Assembly: GCA_903884185.1 (NCBI GenBank)
Contig: CAISDV010000171.1
Location: 1,729 to 65,728, forward strand
Source of the DNA: an uncultured Chitinophagaceae bacterium
GTDB lineage: Bacteria > Bacteroidota > Bacteroidia > Chitinophagales > Chitinophagaceae
Length of the DNA: 64,000 nucleotides
Direction: 5' to 3'
Shown here: positions 1,336 through 40,607 of the stretch, piece by piece
How positions within the stretch are numbered: position 1 is the first letter of the stretch
How the letters are laid out: every line of letters begins with the position of its first letter
Notes under the pieces: model-generated
The model's input: only the letters and a program-made list of their open reading frames with translations
Told to the model about the DNA's origin: nothing
Database searches by the model: none
Position numbers and translations under genes: made by a program

Positions 1336-2436
1336 CTATTTGGGCGCTCTACGGTAGAGAGCGATCACCACAAATACAAAAATGATATTTGGTGTCCAGG
1401 CCGCTAATATCGGAGGGAAATTTCCTTTGGTGGAAAAGACGGTTGAGAATTTATCAGCCAGTATGAACAAAGCGGCAATGATCAATCCCATGGCGAGATG
1501 CAGCCCACTACCTCCCCTCACTTTTCTGCCCGCAACAATGGCGCCGATAAGTGTTAGCAGGATAACTGTGACGGGGGTGGCATCCCTCCTCCCCATCTCC
1601 ACTTTTAATTCATTCAGTCCTTCCGAACCACGCATTTCTTCGAGATTGATTTGCCTTCGGAGATCCGGGGATTCTAATTTATCTTTTGTGTATTTATCCG
1701 TTTTGAGATCTGAGGGACGAAAATTAAAATCTGTATTCTGTGACTGATAAAAAACAACTTTTTCATGCATTCCGTTGAAATCATGTTTCACCACATAATT
1801 CATTCTCCATTTTTTTGTAGCTGTATCCCAGAAAATATCACTCGCCCGCAAATTTTCGACCACCACATTATTCTTAATGCGATACATAAAAAAAGGCTGG
1901 CCTCTTTTAGAAGCAGTATCATAATTTCCAAGGCTTGCATAGGAAAATGAATCGACCTTGAGATAAATATTATTACTGCCGCCATTCATCCTATTGATGG
2001 CTTCATAAGATGAATTGGGATCAAAATATTTTGTTTCAAATGCCCCGCGTACCTGGTTTGACCTTGGAACAAGATAATGATTGGCGTACCATAGTAGCCC
2101 TGCCAGGAAAACACCACCGATCAAGTAAGGCCGTAACCAACGGTTGAAACTGGCGCCGCTGGCAAGTATGGCAATGATCTCGCTGCGCACCGCCATTTTG
2201 GAAGTAAAAAAGATCACGGCAATAAAAACAAAAAGCGGGAAGAGCAAAGCAGCCATGTAGGGCACAAAAGCAATATAATATTGCAGGATGATGTTTTTAA
2301 CACCAAGGTGCGACTTGACAAAATCATCTGCCTTCTCACTGATGTCCACCACAATTGCAATGACTGTGAATAAAAAGATGGCAAAGAAAAAAGTGAGAAT
2401 GAATTTCTTCAGTATGTACCAGTCTATTTTTTTCAT
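1336..2436 (-). CDS. LptF/LptG family permease (YjgP/YjgQ)
   Basis: 366 aa, ATG start, N-terminus MKKIDWYILKKFILTFFFAIFLF typical of the family, multiple TM segments with large periplasmic loop. Confidence 0.85.
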   Translation of the reverse strand: MKKIDWYILKKFILTFFFAIFLFTVIAIVVDISEKADDFVKSHLGVKNIILQYYIAFVPYMAALLFPLFVFIAVIFFTSKMAVRSEIIAILASGASFNRWLRPYLIGGVFLAGLLWYANHYLVPRSNQVRGAFETKYFDPNSSYEAINRMNGGSNNIYLKVDSFSYASLGNYDTASKRGQPFFMYRIKNNVVVENLRASDIFWDTATKKWRMNYVVKHDFNGMHEKVVFYQSQNTDFNFRPSDLKTDKYTKDKLESPDLRRQINLEEMRGSEGLNELKVEMGRRDATPVTVILLTLIGAIVAGRKVRGGSGLHLAMGLIIAALFILADKFSTVFSTKGNFPPILAAWTPNIIFVFVVIALYRRAPK

Positions 2437-2706: not shown

Positions 2707-2769
2707 TTTCACGCCCGTCCGAATGGCTTAGCCGGGCGGGCAAAGACGCAAAGGAGCCAAGGCGCAAAG
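2707..2769. repeat. word-hairpin arm, family d (TTCACGCAAAGACGCAAAGG type), interrupted
   Basis: tttcacg + insert + caaagacgcaaaggagccaaggcgcaaag; degenerate partner arm downstream (about 2781-2810). Confidence 0.6.
2714..2740. mobile_element. 27-nt GC-rich palindromic mini-element nested in an intergenic word-hairpin
   Basis: CCCGTCCGAATGGCTTAGCCGGGCGGG splits tttcacg|caaagacgcaaagg; the uninterrupted string tttcacgcaaagacgc occurs at 57623. Confidence 0.6.
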
Positions 2770-2850: not shown

Positions 2851-3990
2851 TTATAAACGTTGCTTTAATTGTGGTATCATGGCAGCCTTCCATGAAAGGA
2901 AAGTATCTGCCAGGATATATTTGCGGGCCTCACTTACCAGCCAGAGATAAAAAGAAAGGTTGTGTATGCTGGCTATTTGCAAGCCGAGGATCTCATCGGC
3001 AACAAATAAATGCCGCAGGTAAGCTTTGCTATAATAATTGCTTGTTTCGCAAGGGAAACCTTCATCGATCACGGAAATATCGGTTGCCCATTTTTTATTT
3101 CTTATGTTGATGATACCCTGCGAAGTGAAGAGCATTCCGTTTCTTCCATTACGCGTTGGCATCACACAATCAAACATGTCAACACCGAGGCTGATGGCTT
3201 CGAGGATATTCCACGGAGTACCCACTCCCATTAAATAACGCGGTTTATCCGCAGGCAAAATATCACAACACAATTCAGTGAACTCGTACATCATTTCTTC
3301 AGGCTCTCCCACACTCAATCCGCCAATAGCATTGCCCGCAGCGTGTTTGGAGGCAACATATTCAGAAGAAACTGTGCGAAGGTCTTTATAAATGCCGCCC
3401 TGAACAATTGGGAAAAGATTTTGCGTATGGCCATATTTGCCCTCGGTCTCATTCAGCCTTTCTATACATGCGTCCAACCAGCGATGCGTTAACTCCATGC
3501 TTTGCTTTACATATTTGTATTCGCTGGGATGAGGCGGGCATTCATCAAATGCCATAATAATATCGGCACCAATACTTCTTTGAATGTCCATCACTTTCGC
3601 CGGACTGAATAAATGCCTGCTGCCATCAATATGAGATTGAAACATCACACCTTCTTCAGCGATCTTCCTGTTGGCGGACAAAGAAAATACCTGGTAACCG
3701 CCGCTATCGGTGAGTATGGGCCTGTCCCAACCCATGAATTTATGCAGGCCACCACAGGTTTTCAGTACTTCTATACCCGGCCGCAAATAAAGATGATAGG
3801 TATTGCCAAGAATGATCTGCGCTTTTATTTCTTCCTTCAGTTGCTGTTGTGTTACAGCTTTTACGCTACCCACAGTGCCCACAGGCATAAAGATCGGGGT
3901 CAATATCTCGCCATGATCCGTGCTGATCTTGCCCGCCCTTGCTTTCGTATGGGTATTTGTTGATTCTAATTGAAAACTTAATGCTGCCAT
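2851..3990 (-). CDS. tgt: tRNA-guanine transglycosylase (queuine tRNA-ribosyltransferase)
   Basis: Track ORF 2851..4086 trimmed to ATG at 3990 (MAALSFQLESTNTHTKARAGKISTDHGEILTPIFMPVGT); motifs TDSGGYQVFSL, LFPIVQGG, GLSVGEP. The upstream extension crosses a low-complexity repeat. Confidence 0.9.
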   Translation of the reverse strand: MAALSFQLESTNTHTKARAGKISTDHGEILTPIFMPVGTVGSVKAVTQQQLKEEIKAQIILGNTYHLYLRPGIEVLKTCGGLHKFMGWDRPILTDSGGYQVFSLSANRKIAEEGVMFQSHIDGSRHLFSPAKVMDIQRSIGADIIMAFDECPPHPSEYKYVKQSMELTHRWLDACIERLNETEGKYGHTQNLFPIVQGGIYKDLRTVSSEYVASKHAAGNAIGGLSVGEPEEMMYEFTELCCDILPADKPRYLMGVGTPWNILEAISLGVDMFDCVMPTRNGRNGMLFTSQGIINIRNKKWATDISVIDEGFPCETSNYYSKAYLRHLFVADEILGLQIASIHNLSFYLWLVSEARKYILADTFLSWKAAMIPQLKQRL

Positions 3991-4061
3991 GAATAAGTAC
4001 TGATGGTAAAAGAAAGCAAATTTACATACAAGAAAGCAAAGCATGGTATGATACCGGATAT

Positions 4062-4094
4062 ACATCGTACATCCCACATCTAACATCTAACATC
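4062..4094. repeat. 7-nt periodic stutter tract (ACATCNN)
   Basis: acatcgt acatccc acatcta acatcta acatc, in the divergent tgt / GT2 promoter gap. Confidence 0.8.
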
Positions 4095-8103: not shown

Positions 8104-8140
8104 AGAGGTGCTTTTATAGGGGTCAAATATATTATTCTTT

Positions 8141-8216
8141 TCACCGCAGAGACGCAGAGACAGGGAGAAACGGGGAGATATCTCGGCGAACCTCCCCGTC
8201 TCCCCGCCTCCCCGGT
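8141..8216. repeat. word-hairpin, family a (CACCGCAGAGACGCAGAG / CTCCCCGCCTCCCC type)
   Basis: tcaccgcagagacgcagagacagggagaaacggggag ... cctccccgtctccccgcctccccggt; between the M1 peptidase start and the rsmI stop. Confidence 0.8.
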
Positions 8217-8233
8217 AAAAATTATAAAATCTC

Positions 8234-26960: not shown

Positions 26961-28109
26961 TTACTCTTTCGTCTCTCCCAGTTTAGGGCGCAGCCTTTTC
27001 GACTTACTGAAAATATTCTGTCCTTTATCAATTCCGCTGCGAATGGCTTTCTGTCGTTCCAATGGCATAGCTATGGTGTTTTTGCATTCAATACTGCAAC
27101 AACCATCATATTGTTTTGCACAATCTTCGCATTGAATAAAGAGTAAATGGCAGCCATGATTTTTACAGTTGGTATGAGTGTCGCACGACTTACCGCATTG
27201 GTGGCATTTAGCGATCACATCTTCTGTAATGCGTTCACCCAGCCGTTCATCAAACACAAAATTCTTCCCGATGAATTTGCTTGGAGCTTCGTTCTCTTTT
27301 ATTTCGCGGGCATAATTAATGATGCCCCCCTCGAGATGAAATACATTTTTAAATCCTTTATGCAGCATGTAGGCGCTGGCCTTTTCACAACGGATACCAC
27401 CTGTGCAGTACATGATGATATTGTTGTCCTCTTTGCCCTTCATCATATCCGCAGCCATGGGCAACTGTTCACGAAAAGTATCTGAAGGGATCTCCACTGC
27501 ATTTTCAAAATGTCCCACTTCATATTCATAATGATTGCGCATGTCTATCACCACTGTGCCGGGATCTTTCATCAGTTCATTCATCTTCAGCGCATTCACA
27601 TATTTTCCTTTTTGAAACATATTGAAGGAAGGGTCCCTGATACCATCTGCCACAATTTTATCCCGCACTTTAATTCGTAATACCCAGAAACTCTTACCCT
27701 GCCCGACTGAATCGTTCAGGCGGGCCTGCCCGACTGGATCGTTCAGGCGGGCCTGCCCGACTGGATCGTTCAGGCGGGCCTGCCCGACTGGGTCGTTCAG
27801 GCGGGCACCATCATCCACTGCAATATTCAATCGCAAACCATTCAATGGTTCAATAGAATATAAAAATGTTTTGAATGATTCAAATTGAGAAGCAGGTACA
27901 CTCACCTGTGCATTGATGCCTTCCTTTGCCACATAGATCCTTCCGTATACTTTGAGGGCATTCAAATGCAGGTATAACTGATCACGAAAAGCTTTGGGAT
28001 CCTCTACAGAAAAGTAATGATAGAAACTAAGCGTTACGCGCTGCTCATTTTCTTCCATGAGGCGTTGCTTGAGTTCTAAGTTATTGATGCGGTTGTGTAA
28101 TACTGCCAT
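26961..28109 (-). CDS. trhO: rhodanese-domain tRNA uridine(34) hydroxylase (UPF0176/YceA family) carrying a 36-aa repeat insertion
   Basis: Trimmed to ATG at 28109 ([33 protein letters not shown]); rhodanese active site [11 protein letters not shown], Cys-rich C-terminus; contains ARLNDPVGQ x4. Confidence 0.85.
27699..27806. repeat. 4 x 27-bp tandem repeat (CTGCCCGACTGGATCGTTCAGGCGGGC) in frame within trhO
   Basis: Units 27699-27725, 27726-27752, 27753-27779, 27780-27806 differ only at the two central positions (tgAAtc, tgGAtc, tgGAtc, tgGGtc). Confidence 0.95.
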
Positions 28110-31640: not shown

Positions 31641-33936
31641 CTGTTGTACTGTTGACATTATTTTCACAAGATTGTTATTTCACCGCGGAGACAGGGAGGC
31701 GGGGAGGTTCGCAGAGTTAAAATTCAGTAAATCAATACTCTGGTTCAAATTATATACAGTTGATGCTTCTTTACACCAGCCCCTCGATATGAGTAAAGTG
31801 GCGTACATTGAAATACTCGACAATAATAACAAACCCGTGATACAGGCCAAGATTGCTTTGAAGAATGGGGATGGCAATGGTTCCTTACCTCTCCCTGTTT
31901 CTATCGGCTCAGGAAAATATAAACTGCGCGCTTATACCAACTGGATGAAGAATTTTGGTGCAGATCATTTCTTTGAAAAAATTATTACTATCGTCAATAC
32001 ACAAAAAGCAAACGAAACTATTTCTTCTCCTAAACCGGATCAGTATGATATCCAGTTCTTCCCAGAGGGAGGTAACCTCGTAAATGGTATCCAGAGCAAA
32101 GTGGCTTTTAAAGCTACAGATCAAACCGGTAAGGGAGTTGCGTTTACAGGCTCCTTGTTAGATGAACAGGATAATGTCATCATTAAATCTTTCCAGCCTC
32201 TCAAATTTGGTATGGGTAATTTTAGTTTTACTCCAACCAGCGGGCATCATTATAAAGCCATAATAGATATCGCAGGAAAAAACAAGATCACGAAAGAATT
32301 GCCTTCTGTATATGCTGAAGGATATGTAATGAAAGTAACTACAGGTCAAAGTATCATTACTGTTACCGTTCAGACAAACATTAGTACAGCTGCCGAATTA
32401 TACCTTTTTGTCAATACTGGTCAGTCGGCTAAGTTCTCCTGGGCTGGCTTTATGCGAAATGGTATAGCGCATTTTTTGATAACAAAAGACAAACTCGGAG
32501 ATGGTATTTCACATTTTACTGTTTTTAACAGCGAACGCCAACCGGTATGTGAACGTTTATATTTTAAAGTTCCACAGGAATACTTGCAGATGTATGCATC
32601 TACTGACAATCCAGGTTATGCTCCAAGAAAAAAAGTAACATTGAACATTCTCGCTGCAACGCAAGCCGGGAAAACAAGCGAAGCAGATATGTCGATGTCT
32701 GTTTACAGATTAGACTCATTACAATCACCAGATGAAAATAATATCAGCAGTTACTTGTGGCTGAATTCAGAACTAGCCGGTACTATTGAATCGCCACAAT
32801 ATTATTTTGATAGTACCAGTATCCCTGAAGCAGCAGATAATCTAATGCTCACGCAAGGATGGAGAAGGTTTCGCTGGGAAGATGTTCTTCAGAATAAAAA
32901 ACCTTCCTTCACTTATGCTCCTGAATACAACGGGCATATCATTACCGGGAAAGTGATCGATACCCGCACAGGCTCCACCGCTGAAAATATAGAGAGTTAT
33001 CTTTCAGTTCCGGGAGTACGGACACAATTCTCACCGTCGCGCAGTGATGCATCCGGACAGGTGAAATTTGAAATGAAAGAAATGTATGGCTCATCTGAGA
33101 TCATTGTACAGACCAATTCGCGTGTCGACAGCTTGTATCGTGTAGACATTGCAAATCCGTTCTTTGAAAGCTATTCATCGCGCAAATTGCCATCGTTTCA
33201 TTTTACTTCGGATAACGCCACAAATTTTCTTACACATAGCATTGGCTCACAGGTACAGAATATTTACCTGGGCGACATGTTACAGCAATTCGGCATTCCT
33301 GCTTTAGATACCAATCCTTTGCAGGTACCTCGCGAATCAAGGTACTTACTGGACAACTATGTTCGCTTTGTTACTTTGGAAGAAGTACTACGCGAATATG
33401 TTTTGTCTGTGAATGTCCGCAAGAGAGAAGATAAATTTCATGTGTTGCTGTACGACCTTGCCAACAAAGTGTATTTTGAAAATGATGGATTGGTATTGCT
33501 GGATGGCGTGCCTGTTTTTGACCAGGACAAATTCATGAAATTCGATCCGTTAAAGATCAGGAAGGTGGAAGTGGTGGATAACAAGTATTTCCTTGGTGGT
33601 AATTATTTTGATGGAATATTAAATTGCTCAACGTACAAAGGAAACCTCGCAGATTTTGAGCTTGACCCGCATGCAACCGTGATAGACTATGATGGGTTAC
33701 AATTGCAAAGAGAATTTTATTCACCTCAATACGCCACAGAACAACAGTTAAACAGCCATCTCCCCGATTTCAGGAATGTGTTGTACTGGTCTCCGAATAT
33801 ACATACCAATACTTTGGGTAAGCAAACTACCAGTTTCTATACTTCCGATGTAAAGGGTAAATATGCAGTTGTATTGCAAGGGATTGCTGCCGATGGAAAA
33901 AGCGGGAGTAATGTGGTTACATTTAATGTGAAGTAA
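31618..33936 (+). CDS. large MG2/alpha-2-macroglobulin-like protein homolog, native 5' end apparently replaced by a repeat (possible pseudogene or neo-N-terminus)
   Basis: 772 aa; family-like sequence starts at ILWFKLYTVDASLHQPLDMSKVAYIEILD...YKLRAYTNWMKNFG; residues 20-36 are translated from a half hairpin repeat (31676-33); no signal peptide; alternative ATG at 31789. Confidence 0.55.
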   Translation: MISSINLNCCTVDIIFTRLLFHRGDREAGRFAELKFSKSILWFKLYTVDASLHQPLDMSKVAYIEILDNNNKPVIQAKIALKNGDGNGSLPLPVSIGSGKYKLRAYTNWMKNFGADHFFEKIITIVNTQKANETISSPKPDQYDIQFFPEGGNLVNGIQSKVAFKATDQTGKGVAFTGSLLDEQDNVIIKSFQPLKFGMGNFSFTPTSGHHYKAIIDIAGKNKITKELPSVYAEGYVMKVTTGQSIITVTVQTNISTAAELYLFVNTGQSAKFSWAGFMRNGIAHFLITKDKLGDGISHFTVFNSERQPVCERLYFKVPQEYLQMYASTDNPGYAPRKKVTLNILAATQAGKTSEADMSMSVYRLDSLQSPDENNISSYLWLNSELAGTIESPQYYFDSTSIPEAADNLMLTQGWRRFRWEDVLQNKKPSFTYAPEYNGHIITGKVIDTRTGSTAENIESYLSVPGVRTQFSPSRSDASGQVKFEMKEMYGSSEIIVQTNSRVDSLYRVDIANPFFESYSSRKLPSFHFTSDNATNFLTHSIGSQVQNIYLGDMLQQFGIPALDTNPLQVPRESRYLLDNYVRFVTLEEVLREYVLSVNVRKREDKFHVLLYDLANKVYFENDGLVLLDGVPVFDQDKFMKFDPLKIRKVEVVDNKYFLGGNYFDGILNCSTYKGNLADFELDPHATVIDYDGLQLQREFYSPQYATEQQLNSHLPDFRNVLYWSPNIHTNTLGKQTTSFYTSDVKGKYAVVLQGIAADGKSGSNVVTFNVK
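31676..31733. repeat. half word-hairpin, family a, inverted orientation
   Basis: tatttcaccgcggagacagggaggcggggaggttcgcagagttaaaattcagtaaatc matches the reverse complement of 39481-39540 at roughly 53 of 57 aligned positions (hand alignment). Confidence 0.8.
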
Positions 33937-33940
33937 AAAT

Positions 33941-34034
33941 TCACCGCAGAGTCGCAGAGACGGGGAGGTCCGCAGAGATAATTAACCATACTAAAGGCAC
34001 TCTGCGAAACTCCCCGCCTCCCTGTCTCCCCGGT
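33941..34034. repeat. word-hairpin, family a, complete
   Basis: tcaccgcagagtcgcagagacggggaggtccgcagag ... ctctgcgaaactccccgcctccctgtctccccggt; starts 5 nt after the stop at 33936. Confidence 0.85.
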
Positions 34035-34042
34035 AAAAAAAA

Positions 34043-37552: not shown

Positions 37553-38704
37553 TTATTTCAGCATCTCTGTTAATATTCCTACTTCATCATTTGTATTAAA
37601 CGCATGCAGCACAATCCTCAACCTTTCCTTTCCTTTTGGAACAGTAGGATATAAAATAGGCCGCACATCCAGGTTATTCTCCTGTAATTTTTCTGCCAGC
37701 GTTTTTACATTTTCATTTCCTGGAATGATCACCACCTGTATCGCCGTTTGAGAAGATAATTTTTCATAAGAGATATTGGCTGATTGAAATTGCTGTATTA
37801 ATCCCTGCAATTGCTTTCTCTCCGCCTGCATGGTTGGAAATAATTTGTAAGCTTCACTGATCATCGCAACCGCATGTGGGGGCAGTGAAGTAGAATACAC
37901 AAAGCTTCTTGAAAAATTAATCAGATAATCGCGTAAAGTAGCGCTACCCAATATTACAGCACCATGGCAGCCACAGGCTTTTCCAAAACTATGCATCCTT
38001 GCAAATACTTTATTCTGCAAACCAAGATGCTGTACCAGGCCTTCTCCCCTTTCACCTATCACTCCAGTAGCATGCGCTTCATCAACCACCAGATGAGCAC
38101 TGTATTTTTCACAAAGAGCAACCAGTTCGTTCAGCGGACAAAGATCACCATCCATGCTAAACACGGTTTCTGTTACTACAATTATATTTCCTTTACTATC
38201 TCTTGTATGTTGTAATCTTTTTGCAAGTGCCTCCATATCATTATGCGCAAAAGAGAACGATTCGGCAAAAGATAAACGGATTCCATCACGGATAGATGCA
38301 TGGCATAAAGCATCGTATAAAATAGTATCGCCTCTTTGTGCAATGGCTGCGATCGATCCAATATTAGCATCATAACCGGAATTGAAGATGAGCGCAGTAT
38401 CTGATTGATGGAAAGAAGCGATTTGTTTTTCAGTTTGTTCTATCAATTGATAATTACCTGCGAGTAAACGAGAGCCTGTAGAACCGGTTGCCCCCGCCCC
38501 GCTACGCAGGTCGGGCAGGAGTTGCCCCTGCCCGACTATGTCATTCAGGCGGGGGTTACTTTCCGTTAATTTATTGTCATGTACGATACCGAGATAGTCA
38601 TTTGAGCAGAAGTCGATTTTACCTTCGGGTAGTTTTAGTTGACGAAAAGAGCCCTCTTTTTTTCGTTCATCCAGCTTTTTATATAAGAAATCGTCAGCGT
38701 ACAT
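37553..38704 (-). CDS. bioF: 8-amino-7-oxononanoate synthase family PLP enzyme with repeat-derived insertion
   Basis: 383 aa; FCSNDYLG, GSTGSRLLAGN, DEAHATG, SFGKACG (PLP lysine); about 18 extra residues PRLNDIVGQG..LPDLRSGAG between the first two motifs. Confidence 0.8.
   Translation of the reverse strand: MYADDFLYKKLDERKKEGSFRQLKLPEGKIDFCSNDYLGIVHDNKLTESNPRLNDIVGQGQLLPDLRSGAGATGSTGSRLLAGNYQLIEQTEKQIASFHQSDTALIFNSGYDANIGSIAAIAQRGDTILYDALCHASIRDGIRLSFAESFSFAHNDMEALAKRLQHTRDSKGNIIVVTETVFSMDGDLCPLNELVALCEKYSAHLVVDEAHATGVIGERGEGLVQHLGLQNKVFARMHSFGKACGCHGAVILGSATLRDYLINFSRSFVYSTSLPPHAVAMISEAYKLFPTMQAERKQLQGLIQQFQSANISYEKLSSQTAIQVVIIPGNENVKTLAEKLQENNLDVRPILYPTVPKGKERLRIVLHAFNTNDEVGILTEMLK
38493..38519. 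mobile_element. 27-nt GC-rich palindromic mini-element, inverted partner, inside bioF
   Basis: CCCGCCCCGCTACGCAGGTCGGGCAGG; separated by 7 nt from the copy at 38527; GTCGGGCAGG/CCTGCCCGAC form a perfect 10-bp inverted repeat. Confidence 0.5.
38527..38553. mobile_element. 27-nt GC-rich palindromic mini-element, same subtype and reading frame as trhO units, inside bioF
   Basis: CCTGCCCGACTATGTCATTCAGGCGGG; minus-strand translation (P)RLNDIVGQ versus ARLNDPVGQ in trhO. Confidence 0.55.
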
Positions 38705-39426: not shown

Positions 39427-39537
39427 TTACCGCAGAGTCGCAGAGACAGGGAGAAACGCAGAGAGAGCTACTGTTGCCTTAAAGGTTTACTGAATTTAGC
39501 TCTGCGAATCTCCCCGCCTCCCTGTCTCTGCGGTGAA
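39427..39537. repeat. word-hairpin, family a, complete
   Basis: ttaccgcagagtcgcagagacagggagaaacgcagagag ... ctctgcgaatctccccgcctccctgtctctgcggtgaa; between convergent miaE and the GSCFA gene. Confidence 0.85.
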
Positions 39538-39572
39538 ATAACACTTTTATAAACATACTAGTAATATTTTTT

Positions 39573-40607
39573 TCAGCAACCCTTCAATGCTCCTTCAAAA
39601 TATTTTTTTTCTTCTTTCATATCTAAAAATGCATTAACCTTTTCAAGAGCCATCGTCTTTTCAAGATAACCTGCCAGGAATTTTTTATGCTGTGAGGATT
39701 GGGAATTAAACGGCTTATGGCTTACTGCCAGGTTGATCTCGGCAATATGTTTCATCAATTCTCTTGTCTCTTCATTCATACATGCCGCTGTAAATTTCTC
39801 CCACACATATTCTGTTGCAGCATAATTGGGATGCACCAGGTCTTCTGCATAAAAACGGTAATCACGCAGATCATCAATCACTAATTCGTATGCAGGAAAA
39901 TAATACGCCCGCTCATATTTTTCAATAAGCTGGTGTACCGCCTGTATCAATACCGCTTTGCTGCGGTTGTTTTCTATTACCCCTTCGCGTAGGTGGCGTA
40001 CCGGGCTAATTGTGAATATGATTGAAATCTTGGGATTGAATCCCGCCCGGCCATGCCGTTCGGACGGGGATTGAAGATTTTGCACCATTGCATCCAAAAC
40101 ACTGAATGTTTCTTCAGCACTTAGTAATTTCTTTTCAAACCAATCTGAGGGTGCTTTGTGGTTATTGGCTGCAACCGAACCCGGTTGTACATTGGCAGCT
40201 TTAGATGTGAGTGTATAAGTCCATGAGGAACCGAGTGTGATCATCAGGTAATCGGCCTCTTTTAAATATTGATGTGTTTCAGCAATAGAATCATTTATTT
40301 TTTTGAGTGATTCTTCAACACTCATTCCCGAAAAACGGCTATGGTGTTTCCAGCTATGCCAGGATTCGTTAAGACAGAACAGATCGTTATTGCTATAAGT
40401 TTTATTATTTATGCAATCACCCACTGCTTCTGCTACACTCACGGGGTTGAATAATATTCCGTGCGAATTTTCCAGTACATTGAATTTATGCTTGCGCAGT
40501 TTTGCGCCAATGTTTTCTGTAAAGCAGGAACCGATCAACAGCATTTTATGCTTGTGGTTGATAGGCTGATGCAATTTTTTAATATCAAATTCGAAATGAA
40601 ATTTCAT
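39573..40607 (-). CDS. GSCFA domain protein with 9-aa repeat-derived insertion
   Basis: 344 aa; LLIGSCFTENIG motif, ISPVRHL motif; PSERHGRAG encoded by the 27-nt element. Confidence 0.8.
   Translation of the reverse strand: MKFHFEFDIKKLHQPINHKHKMLLIGSCFTENIGAKLRKHKFNVLENSHGILFNPVSVAEAVGDCINNKTYSNNDLFCLNESWHSWKHHSRFSGMSVEESLKKINDSIAETHQYLKEADYLMITLGSSWTYTLTSKAANVQPGSVAANNHKAPSDWFEKKLLSAEETFSVLDAMVQNLQSPSERHGRAGFNPKISIIFTISPVRHLREGVIENNRSKAVLIQAVHQLIEKYERAYYFPAYELVIDDLRDYRFYAEDLVHPNYAATEYVWEKFTAACMNEETRELMKHIAEINLAVSHKPFNSQSSQHKKFLAGYLEKTMALEKVNAFLDMKEEKKYFEGALKGC
40042..40068. mobile_element. 27-nt GC-rich palindromic mini-element inside GSCFA gene
   Basis: CCCGCCCGGCCATGCCGTTCGGACGGG; its reverse complement matches 2714-2740 at 24 of 27 positions. 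Confidence 0.6.

Follow-up and report, generated by a model that had tools for sequence, protein, structure and literature searches.

A GC-rich hairpin of 27 nt, here termed T2a, lies in frame within a gene for a GSCFA-family protein in DNA from an uncultured Chitinophagaceae bacterium. We think it likely that the element entered this gene after the split from sequenced relatives, as a copy of a miniature, non-autonomous hairpin repeat. The family to which it belongs has two subtypes, T1 and T2, and consists of very small selfish palindromes that invade genes and are notable for the constancy of their sequence across phyla. Positions given below are those of the window, the whole 64,000-nt stretch of DNA that was analyzed.

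The T2a element and its GSCFA host gene

The host gene (39573–40607, minus strand) encodes a protein of 344 residues assigned to the GSCFA family (Pfam PF08885, E=2.5e-81). T2a occupies positions 40042–40068 and reads CCCGCCCGGCCATGCCGTTCGGACGGG on the plus strand; it lies in minus-strand orientation, with CCCGTCCGAACGGCATGGCCGGGCGGG as its mRNA-sense top strand, and within the gene it reads CCCGUCCGAACGGCAUGGCCGGGCGGG in mRNA sense. Translation of the open reading frame across the element gives ...NLQS PSERHGRAG FNPK..., in agreement with a preliminary description of this DNA that had placed (S)PSERHGRAG on the minus strand, ahead of the segment FNPK...ISPVRHL. The peptide, (S)PSERHGRA(G), is read in phase 2. 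The same description had proposed an 8-bp stem with one G-T pair, and a computed fold of the mRNA-sense 27 nt returned this stem, including its one G-U pair, at -15.3 kcal/mol. Two copies of a 9-nt direct repeat, GGGATTGAA (TTCAATCCC on the minus strand), bracket the element: the left copy (40032–40040) adjoins it, and the right copy (40067–40075), at a distance of 35 nt, overlaps its last two G and is out of frame with the left. Since its two copies fall in different frames of conserved codons (LQS and FNP), we take the repeat to be part of the target and older than the insertion.

Comparison with orthologs shows an insertion. The preliminary description had expected an in-frame gain of 27 nt to appear as a gap of nine residues, and exactly such a gap falls at the insert in all 25 aligned GSCFA orthologs (65–71% identity), which measure 330–338 residues and lack the insert. 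Directly after the gap the invariant FNP...TISPVRH segment begins. A PSERHGRAG-like segment in orthologs had been named as evidence against the insertion; none of the 25 contains one. The best 120 of 8000 GSCFA homologs are mostly 329–340 residues long, compared with 344 in the window. The empty site is also visible at the DNA level in locus L127, the closest GSCFA homolog having DNA available (71% identity), which reads CGT TTG TTT TTC|TTT AAC CCG; the junction falls after residue 180 in both proteins. The order of the HMGL-like, GSCFA and miaE genes is identical in one relative.

The GSCFA protein had no match among PDB sequences, and a fold search returned weak SGNH/GDSL-like matches alone, with none at E≤0.001. 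In an AlphaFold2 model of mean pLDDT 84, the insert forms coil between a preceding helix (residues 164–179) and a following strand (195–200), and pLDDT drops below 50 at residues 182–184. The nine added residues are thus predicted by the model to fall in a low-confidence surface loop. We regard the copy as most probably a passenger, neutral or slightly deleterious.

A second T2a copy in the window, CCCGTCCGAATGGCTTAGCCGGGCGGG (2714–2740, plus strand), is intergenic and lies between tgt (2851–4086, minus strand) and an lptF/G-like gene (1336–2436, minus strand), its top strand running opposite to both. As reported earlier, the reverse complement of the GSCFA 27-mer matches it at 24 of 27 positions. 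These two are the sole matches in the window at three or fewer mismatches, with none in 100 shuffles, and position-weight matrices trained on copies found outside the window score both at 49–50 bits, a value that in shuffled windows never exceeded 8 bits. A CAAAG-rich stretch, CAAAGACGCAAAGGAGCCAAGGCGCAAAG, follows the intergenic copy (2741–2775) and resembles degenerate heptamer repeats.

T1 is represented in the window by four head-to-tail copies of 27 nt each in trhO (27698–27805, minus strand), translated as four repeats of ARLND(P/S)VGQ, and by one copy in bioF (38527–38553, minus strand) with the peptide PRLNDIVGQ. A diverged 27-nt family member, CCCGCCCCGCTACGCAGGTCGGGCAGG (38493–38519, plus strand), lies within bioF in the opposite orientation and is read LPDLRSGAG; the region of this second bioF element (38485–38530) shows bracketing by GGGGCAAC. 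When bioF was aligned to solved structures, the insert region proved too variable for residue counting. The preliminary description regarded the GSCFA and intergenic copies as a second subtype of the trhO/bioF element, which the common two-part hairpin, its GAAY bulge and its covarying inner stem (below) bear out. The sequence pattern that it offered for both stands as a likeness and needs correction in its details: as written it spans 28 positions and requires four unspecified positions instead of five, and the A at position 17 is present in the intergenic copy only, the GSCFA copy having G.

The window also holds an unrelated MITE-like family of about 85–115 nt, with inverted ends TTCACCGCAGAG.CGCAGAGAC.GGGAG ... 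CTCTGCGAA.CTCCCCG.CTCCC.G.CTCC.CGGT.AAA. Its copies lie at 8140–8222, 33938–34040, 39428–39540 and 31682–31712 (minus strand), and its 31-nt right end has four matches in the window against none expected. One copy sits in the convergent gap between miaE and the GSCFA gene.

Structure and distribution of the T1/T2 family

The family falls into two sharp subtypes, T1 (CCCGCCTGAAYGACnnAGTCGGGCAGG) and T2 (CCCGTCCGAAYGG...CCGGGCGGG), together with hybrids. In each element an outer stem of 7 bp (CCCGYCY/RGRCGGG) is followed by a conserved, unpaired GAAY, and an inner stem of 3 bp closes a triloop. Inner-stem positions pair in 90% of cases, with changes on both sides, and none of 500 shuffles reached the observed covariation, much of which is explained by the T1/T2 split: pair 13–19 is A-T in T1 and G-C in T2 (A-U in 48 sequences, G-C in 26), and pair 14–18 occurs as four pair types. 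Because the search patterns fixed most outer-stem columns, the inner stem offers the only unbiased test of covariation. We rejected a simple 9-bp stem in favor of the two-part hairpin because the former lacks covariation and A9–N19 is unpaired in 38 of 93 distinct 27-mers. In addition to the bulge, mismatches are conserved within the stem (C3·A25 in T1, T5·G23 in T2).

A constant length of 27 nt, as first supposed, was not borne out. Among the matches listed from a variable-gap search of low-GC metagenome contigs, T2 elements measure 26 (4), 27 (38), 28 (27), 29 (11), 30 (14) and 36 nt (4), and shorter relatives of 20–24 nt exist. Hairpins with the same stems, whose loops differ in length to give 21-, 24- and 27-nt forms, occur on a few predicted IMG/VR viral contigs (L119–L126, L128–L135).

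A degenerate pattern for both subtypes matched at least 118 stretches in species-representative genomes, almost all of low GC, and the family is present in at least 120 stretches of metagenomes. The similarity between the two window copies is therefore not an isolated one, which had been raised as a reason to suspect chance; their subtype occurs in well over 100 other stretches, and three metagenome contigs contain a 27-mer identical to that in GSCFA. Carriers include many Chitinophagaceae, Bacteroidales, Flavobacteriales, Saprospiraceae, Ignavibacteriales, Chlorobiota, Neomarinimicrobiota, anammox Planctomycetota (Scalindua, Brocadiaceae) and the candidate-phyla-radiation lineages Saccharibacteria, Paceibacterota and Zambryskibacteria, a distribution that rests partly on metagenome-assembled genomes. 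Cultured isolates of Pinibacter, Terrimonas, Arenibacter and Maribacter carry the family, and in the one candidate-phyla-radiation case that was checked, a T1-bearing DnaE best matches Zambryskibacteria and Patescibacteria proteins at up to 87% identity.

Rfam contained nothing relevant, either for the whole window at the gathering threshold or for the local region at E up to 10, and literature searches by DNA sequence, encoded peptide and topic found no description of the T1/T2 family. We rejected assignment as a CRISPR repeat: copies are single, nested or abutting, with no regular unique spacers and no Rfam match.

Elements within genes and within other repeats

About one third of copies lie in long open reading frames, well under the coding fraction of bacterial genomes; the elements are depleted from genes. 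The genes that do carry them are unrelated. Among them are argS, a host in two different phyla, dnaE, mfd, trpE, DUF1501, a LarA-like gene, an IS66 transposase, a type IV coupling protein, a methyltransferase and glycoside hydrolases. Under stringent criteria 13 T2 copies are coding, and every one of them measures 27 or 30 nt; the 45 T2 copies with lengths not divisible by three are all noncoding (Fisher p=2.3e-4). Such lengths are frequent outside genes and absent within them in the T2 set. With a T2 range of 26–36 nt and coding copies of 27 or 30 nt only, we attribute the multiple-of-three length in genes to a survival filter. Reading frame is constrained as well. Two of the sense phases of T1 contain TGA, and genes use the third alone, giving (A/P)RLNDxVGQ; T2 has no stop in any of the six frames and occurs in several of them, with the GSCFA copy as the sole sense, phase-2 case among T2 copies proper.

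Coding T1 copies occupy hydrophilic turns, often at D/N/E/K | G-K, and in 26 of 28 cases the second base of the codon before the element is A. These sites fit selection for tolerated loops. T1 is co-oriented with its host gene at 22 independent sites and opposed at 3 (p ~1e-6 against the stop-codon expectation); examples are loci L018, L023, L041, L065, L074, L075, L101 and L115 and window positions 27698–27805. Because intergenic copies show a similar lean (11 to 6), the co-orientation does not tell selection apart from a bias of insertion.

Copies are frequently nested within, or placed directly beside, other copies and other hairpins. In locus L004, a T2 copy lies within the loop of a T1 copy, and deletion of 27 nt gives back the commonest T1 sequence; because removal of exactly this length regenerates it, no target duplication accompanied the gain. 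An exact 27-nt gain without target duplication is likewise seen in DnaE and GSCFA. The reverse nesting, T1 in T2, occurs at loci L068, L099, L110 and L113, and T2 is found inside unrelated small hairpins of the form CCTCTC...GAGAGG (L007, L040, L077). T2 of 27 or 30 nt also lies inside another widespread hairpin repeat, GTCATTGCGAG...GAAG^CAATCT / ...GTCATTGCGAGCGAAATGAAG^CAATCT..., on seven metagenome contigs (L182, L202, L210, L226, L229, L232, L244); this CAATCT-type host repeat is absent from the window. In the Brocadiaceae locus L047 (1345–1463, 4737–4789, 6395–6460), several hairpin types, nested in multiple layers, make up a composite repeat some 119 nt long, with inverted copies around lpxD/lpxI.

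Two host proteins carry elements at a shared site. The Zambryskibacteria DnaE site DPKGE|GK is filled in three relatives, while in 36 others, among them the sister of one carrier, it is empty; the insert is T1 in one genome and an identical variant, CCCGCCCGCATGACGCAGTCGGGCGGG, in two genomes from separate branches. All three inserts lie at one and the same nucleotide position, GAA G^G(T/A) AAA, and the flanking synonymous sites differ (loci L067, 5349–8000, minus strand, L256, L257 and L258; site GAR G^GN AAA). Similarly, four IS66 transposases (L052, 3562–4818, L108, L145 and L204; one aligned pair 71% identical) bear T2 at the same site, KK|ARPNxSSGR|G.TH, with a 27-mer that varies at position 13 only. 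Either insertion has recurred at the same place in these proteins, or the hairpin has been conserved far beyond neutral expectation.

These patterns bear on what the GSCFA insert does once in place. That the palindrome arose by chance or is an artefact of assembly has a negligible probability and was rejected, as nothing spoke in its favor: no matches are expected by chance in the window, shuffles never approached the matrix scores of the two copies, and the element recurs in the genomes of isolates and, in frame, within many genes. It is very improbable, too, that the protein is left unchanged because the hairpin is cut out of the RNA like a mini-intron or skipped by translational bypass. Ribosomes reportedly bypass GC-rich mobile hairpins in yeast mitochondrial genes, a precedent associated with Lang et al. 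2014, and a direct repeat does bracket the GSCFA copy; however, excision over the 35-nt spacing of that repeat would throw FNPK...ISPVRHL out of frame, lengths other than multiples of three are absent inside genes, and frames containing TGA are never used. We rejected an intron or bypass element on these constraints, since elements tolerated in open reading frames (27 or 30 nt only, stop phases unused) have passed filters of length and frame that act on inserts that are translated, not spliced or bypassed. Judged by its sequence, the GSCFA insert would accordingly be one that is translated and not excised. That usefulness has preserved it, through the peptide it adds to the loop of GSCFA or through an mRNA hairpin regulating translation or stability, we consider quite improbable. 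The hairpin is stable, and in DnaE and the IS66 transposases the conservation of the element greatly exceeds that of flanking synonymous sites. Against this, all three phases and both orientations are used, giving unrelated peptides; host genes are unrelated; intergenic copies exist; and no aligned GSCFA ortholog has anything at this site.

Spread of the elements and comparison with known systems

As the best account of these data, we propose that the T2a hairpin inserted precisely into the GSCFA gene without target duplication, and that it would remain in the transcript, where ribosomes would translate it and so lengthen by nine residues the loop between residues 164–179 and 195–200. Survivors in genes would be those of multiple-of-three length, in a stop-free frame and at hydrophilic turn sites. 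Copies may be made by a trans-acting enzyme encoded elsewhere, probably one that acts on the folded single-stranded hairpin in an HUH/Y1-like manner, and cross-phylum spread could occur by hitch-hiking on transferable DNA. HUH/Y1 transposases act on REP and IS200/IS605 ends as folded single strands. We infer a substrate of this type from the precise gain without duplication, the dispersal and nesting of copies, the near-invariant sequence, and the conserved mismatches and bulge, features in which the family resembles substrates of folded-single-strand enzymes such as HUH/Y1 transposases. The IS66, phage-contig and conjugation-gene hosts are plausible vehicles for transfer between genomes.

Clustering of 797 neighboring ORFs in about 1.5 Mb of flanks yielded no mobilizing gene and no recurring protein family except IS66, which is implausible as the mobilizer and serves as a host of T2 copies. 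Two arrangements that might have delimited a mobilizer were also rejected: the inverted clusters of L047 bracket lpxD, lpxI and a CAAX protease, the 55-nt inverted arms of L180 bracket a fucosidase-like gene, and the genes so enclosed are ordinary ones. No presence/absence polymorphism was seen within populations. A minority of copies is bracketed by 6–9-nt direct repeats or lies inside 7–8-nt tandem repeats, among them the GSCFA copy, the second bioF element and copies in L121, L124, L227 and L249, an enrichment of about three-fold relative to same-locus controls.

Spread without a dedicated enzyme is an unlikely alternative that has more in its favor than those weighed above. Here template switching or repair synthesis would copy another element, with microhomology at the target priming the switch. 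Flanking direct repeats of at least 7 nt occur at 11 of 215 copies, compared with 2–4 in same-locus controls (p=0.007); the TTCAATCCC repeats flank the GSCFA copy; some copies lie within 7–8-nt tandem repeats (L121, L124, L249); and the flanks searched held no transposase. However, flanking repeats are missing from about 90% of copies, microhomology at the DnaE and L004 sites amounts to no more than one G, and the repeat at the GSCFA site predates the insertion. The near-identity of 27-mers across phyla is better fitted by specific sequence recognition. Tentatively, and with more doubt than confidence, T1 and T2 may further represent a hitherto unrecognized, ultra-small mobile class (about 24–30 nt) that is near-identical across Bacteroidota, anammox Planctomycetota, candidate-phyla-radiation bacteria and Ignavibacteriota and re-inserts at the same nucleotide in separate lineages, as would have happened at the DnaE site with its two variants, implying shared machinery or an exploited repair or replication activity.

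The family has consequences for the reading of environmental bacterial proteins. Nine-residue oddities such as PSERHGRAG, (A/P)RLNDxVGQ, PVRTxxPGG and ARPxxxxGR can be read as selfish DNA and need no interpretation as functional motifs or sequencing errors. At a size near the lower limit for mobile DNA, T1 and T2 encode nothing and are almost invariant across phyla, yet they occur in essential genes (dnaE, argS). If they are mobile, an enzyme that recognizes a 27-nt hairpin would be of mechanistic and possibly practical interest, and the family would constitute a natural record of insertion-tolerant protein loops. If the ultra-small class is real, short peptides would be placed into essential proteins by shared machinery or by host repair or replication activity.

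The family is best read as a putative miniature mobile hairpin that is non-autonomous and has its closest counterparts in the small dispersed repeats of cyanobacteria, the REP elements and the palindromic elements of Rickettsia. Classical MITEs (Correia/NEMIS, Nezha) share with T1 and T2 a non-autonomous, dispersed character and the capacity to be read in frame. MITEs measure at least 100 bp, end in inverted repeats that match those of a parent insertion sequence, and have target duplications of fixed length. T1 and T2 have neither such terminal repeats nor a fixed target duplication, with flanking repeats of at least 7 nt at only about 5% of copies. The GC clusters of yeast mitochondria are, like T1 and T2, GC-rich mobile hairpins that invade the coding sequence of AT-rich genomes; they differ in being organellar and in that some are skipped by ribosomes, whereas T1 and T2 appear from their length and frame filters to be read through.

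REP, BIME and REPIN elements are mobilized by RAYT proteins, which are Y1 transposases of the IS200/IS605 type. No Y1 transposase (RAYT) gene flanked by T1 or T2 copies was found in about 1.5 Mb of flanks. Both groups consist of GC-rich imperfect palindromes, of 20–40 nt in the case of REP, with conserved mismatches and many dispersed copies, and both lack target duplications. REP elements occasionally lie inside genes (PMC3733652), as T1 and T2 do. They are defined by an unpaired GTAG or CGTC tetranucleotide head (PMC3733652), whereas the flanks of T1 and T2 show no conserved tetranucleotide and the CGTC of T2 (positions 3–6) sits in the paired stem. REP elements usually form inverted doublets, and their families are species-specific; T1 and T2 are mostly single, tandem or nested and cross phyla.

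Rickettsia palindromic elements, reportedly described by Ogata et al. in 2000, are also selfish palindromes found in frame in unrelated housekeeping genes, where they are translated and fall in surface loops. RPE-4 and RPE-6 are discussed in PMC3733652. In contrast to T1 and T2, which are 24–36 nt long and widespread, these elements span 100–150 bp and are confined to Rickettsia.

The small dispersed repeats SDR1–8 of Nostoc, like T1 and T2, are dispersed elements of 21–27 nt with no encoded protein and no known mobilizer. Elhai et al. are said to have described them in Genome Res in 2008. Their subfamilies share the hairpin more than the sequence, with compensatory changes; copies are nested in one another, and some lie in short tandem repeats. 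Compared by description, T1 and T2 differ from these repeats in sequence and in the phyla that carry them, and are near-identical across phyla. Frequent embedding in tandem heptamers is not a T1/T2 trait: a period-7/8 signal is present in 1–2% of flanks, and we rejected such embedding as a general property in view of its isolated cases (L121, L124, L249 and the tail after position 2740). About one third of T1 and T2 copies are translated in frame, which further sets them apart from the Nostoc repeats.
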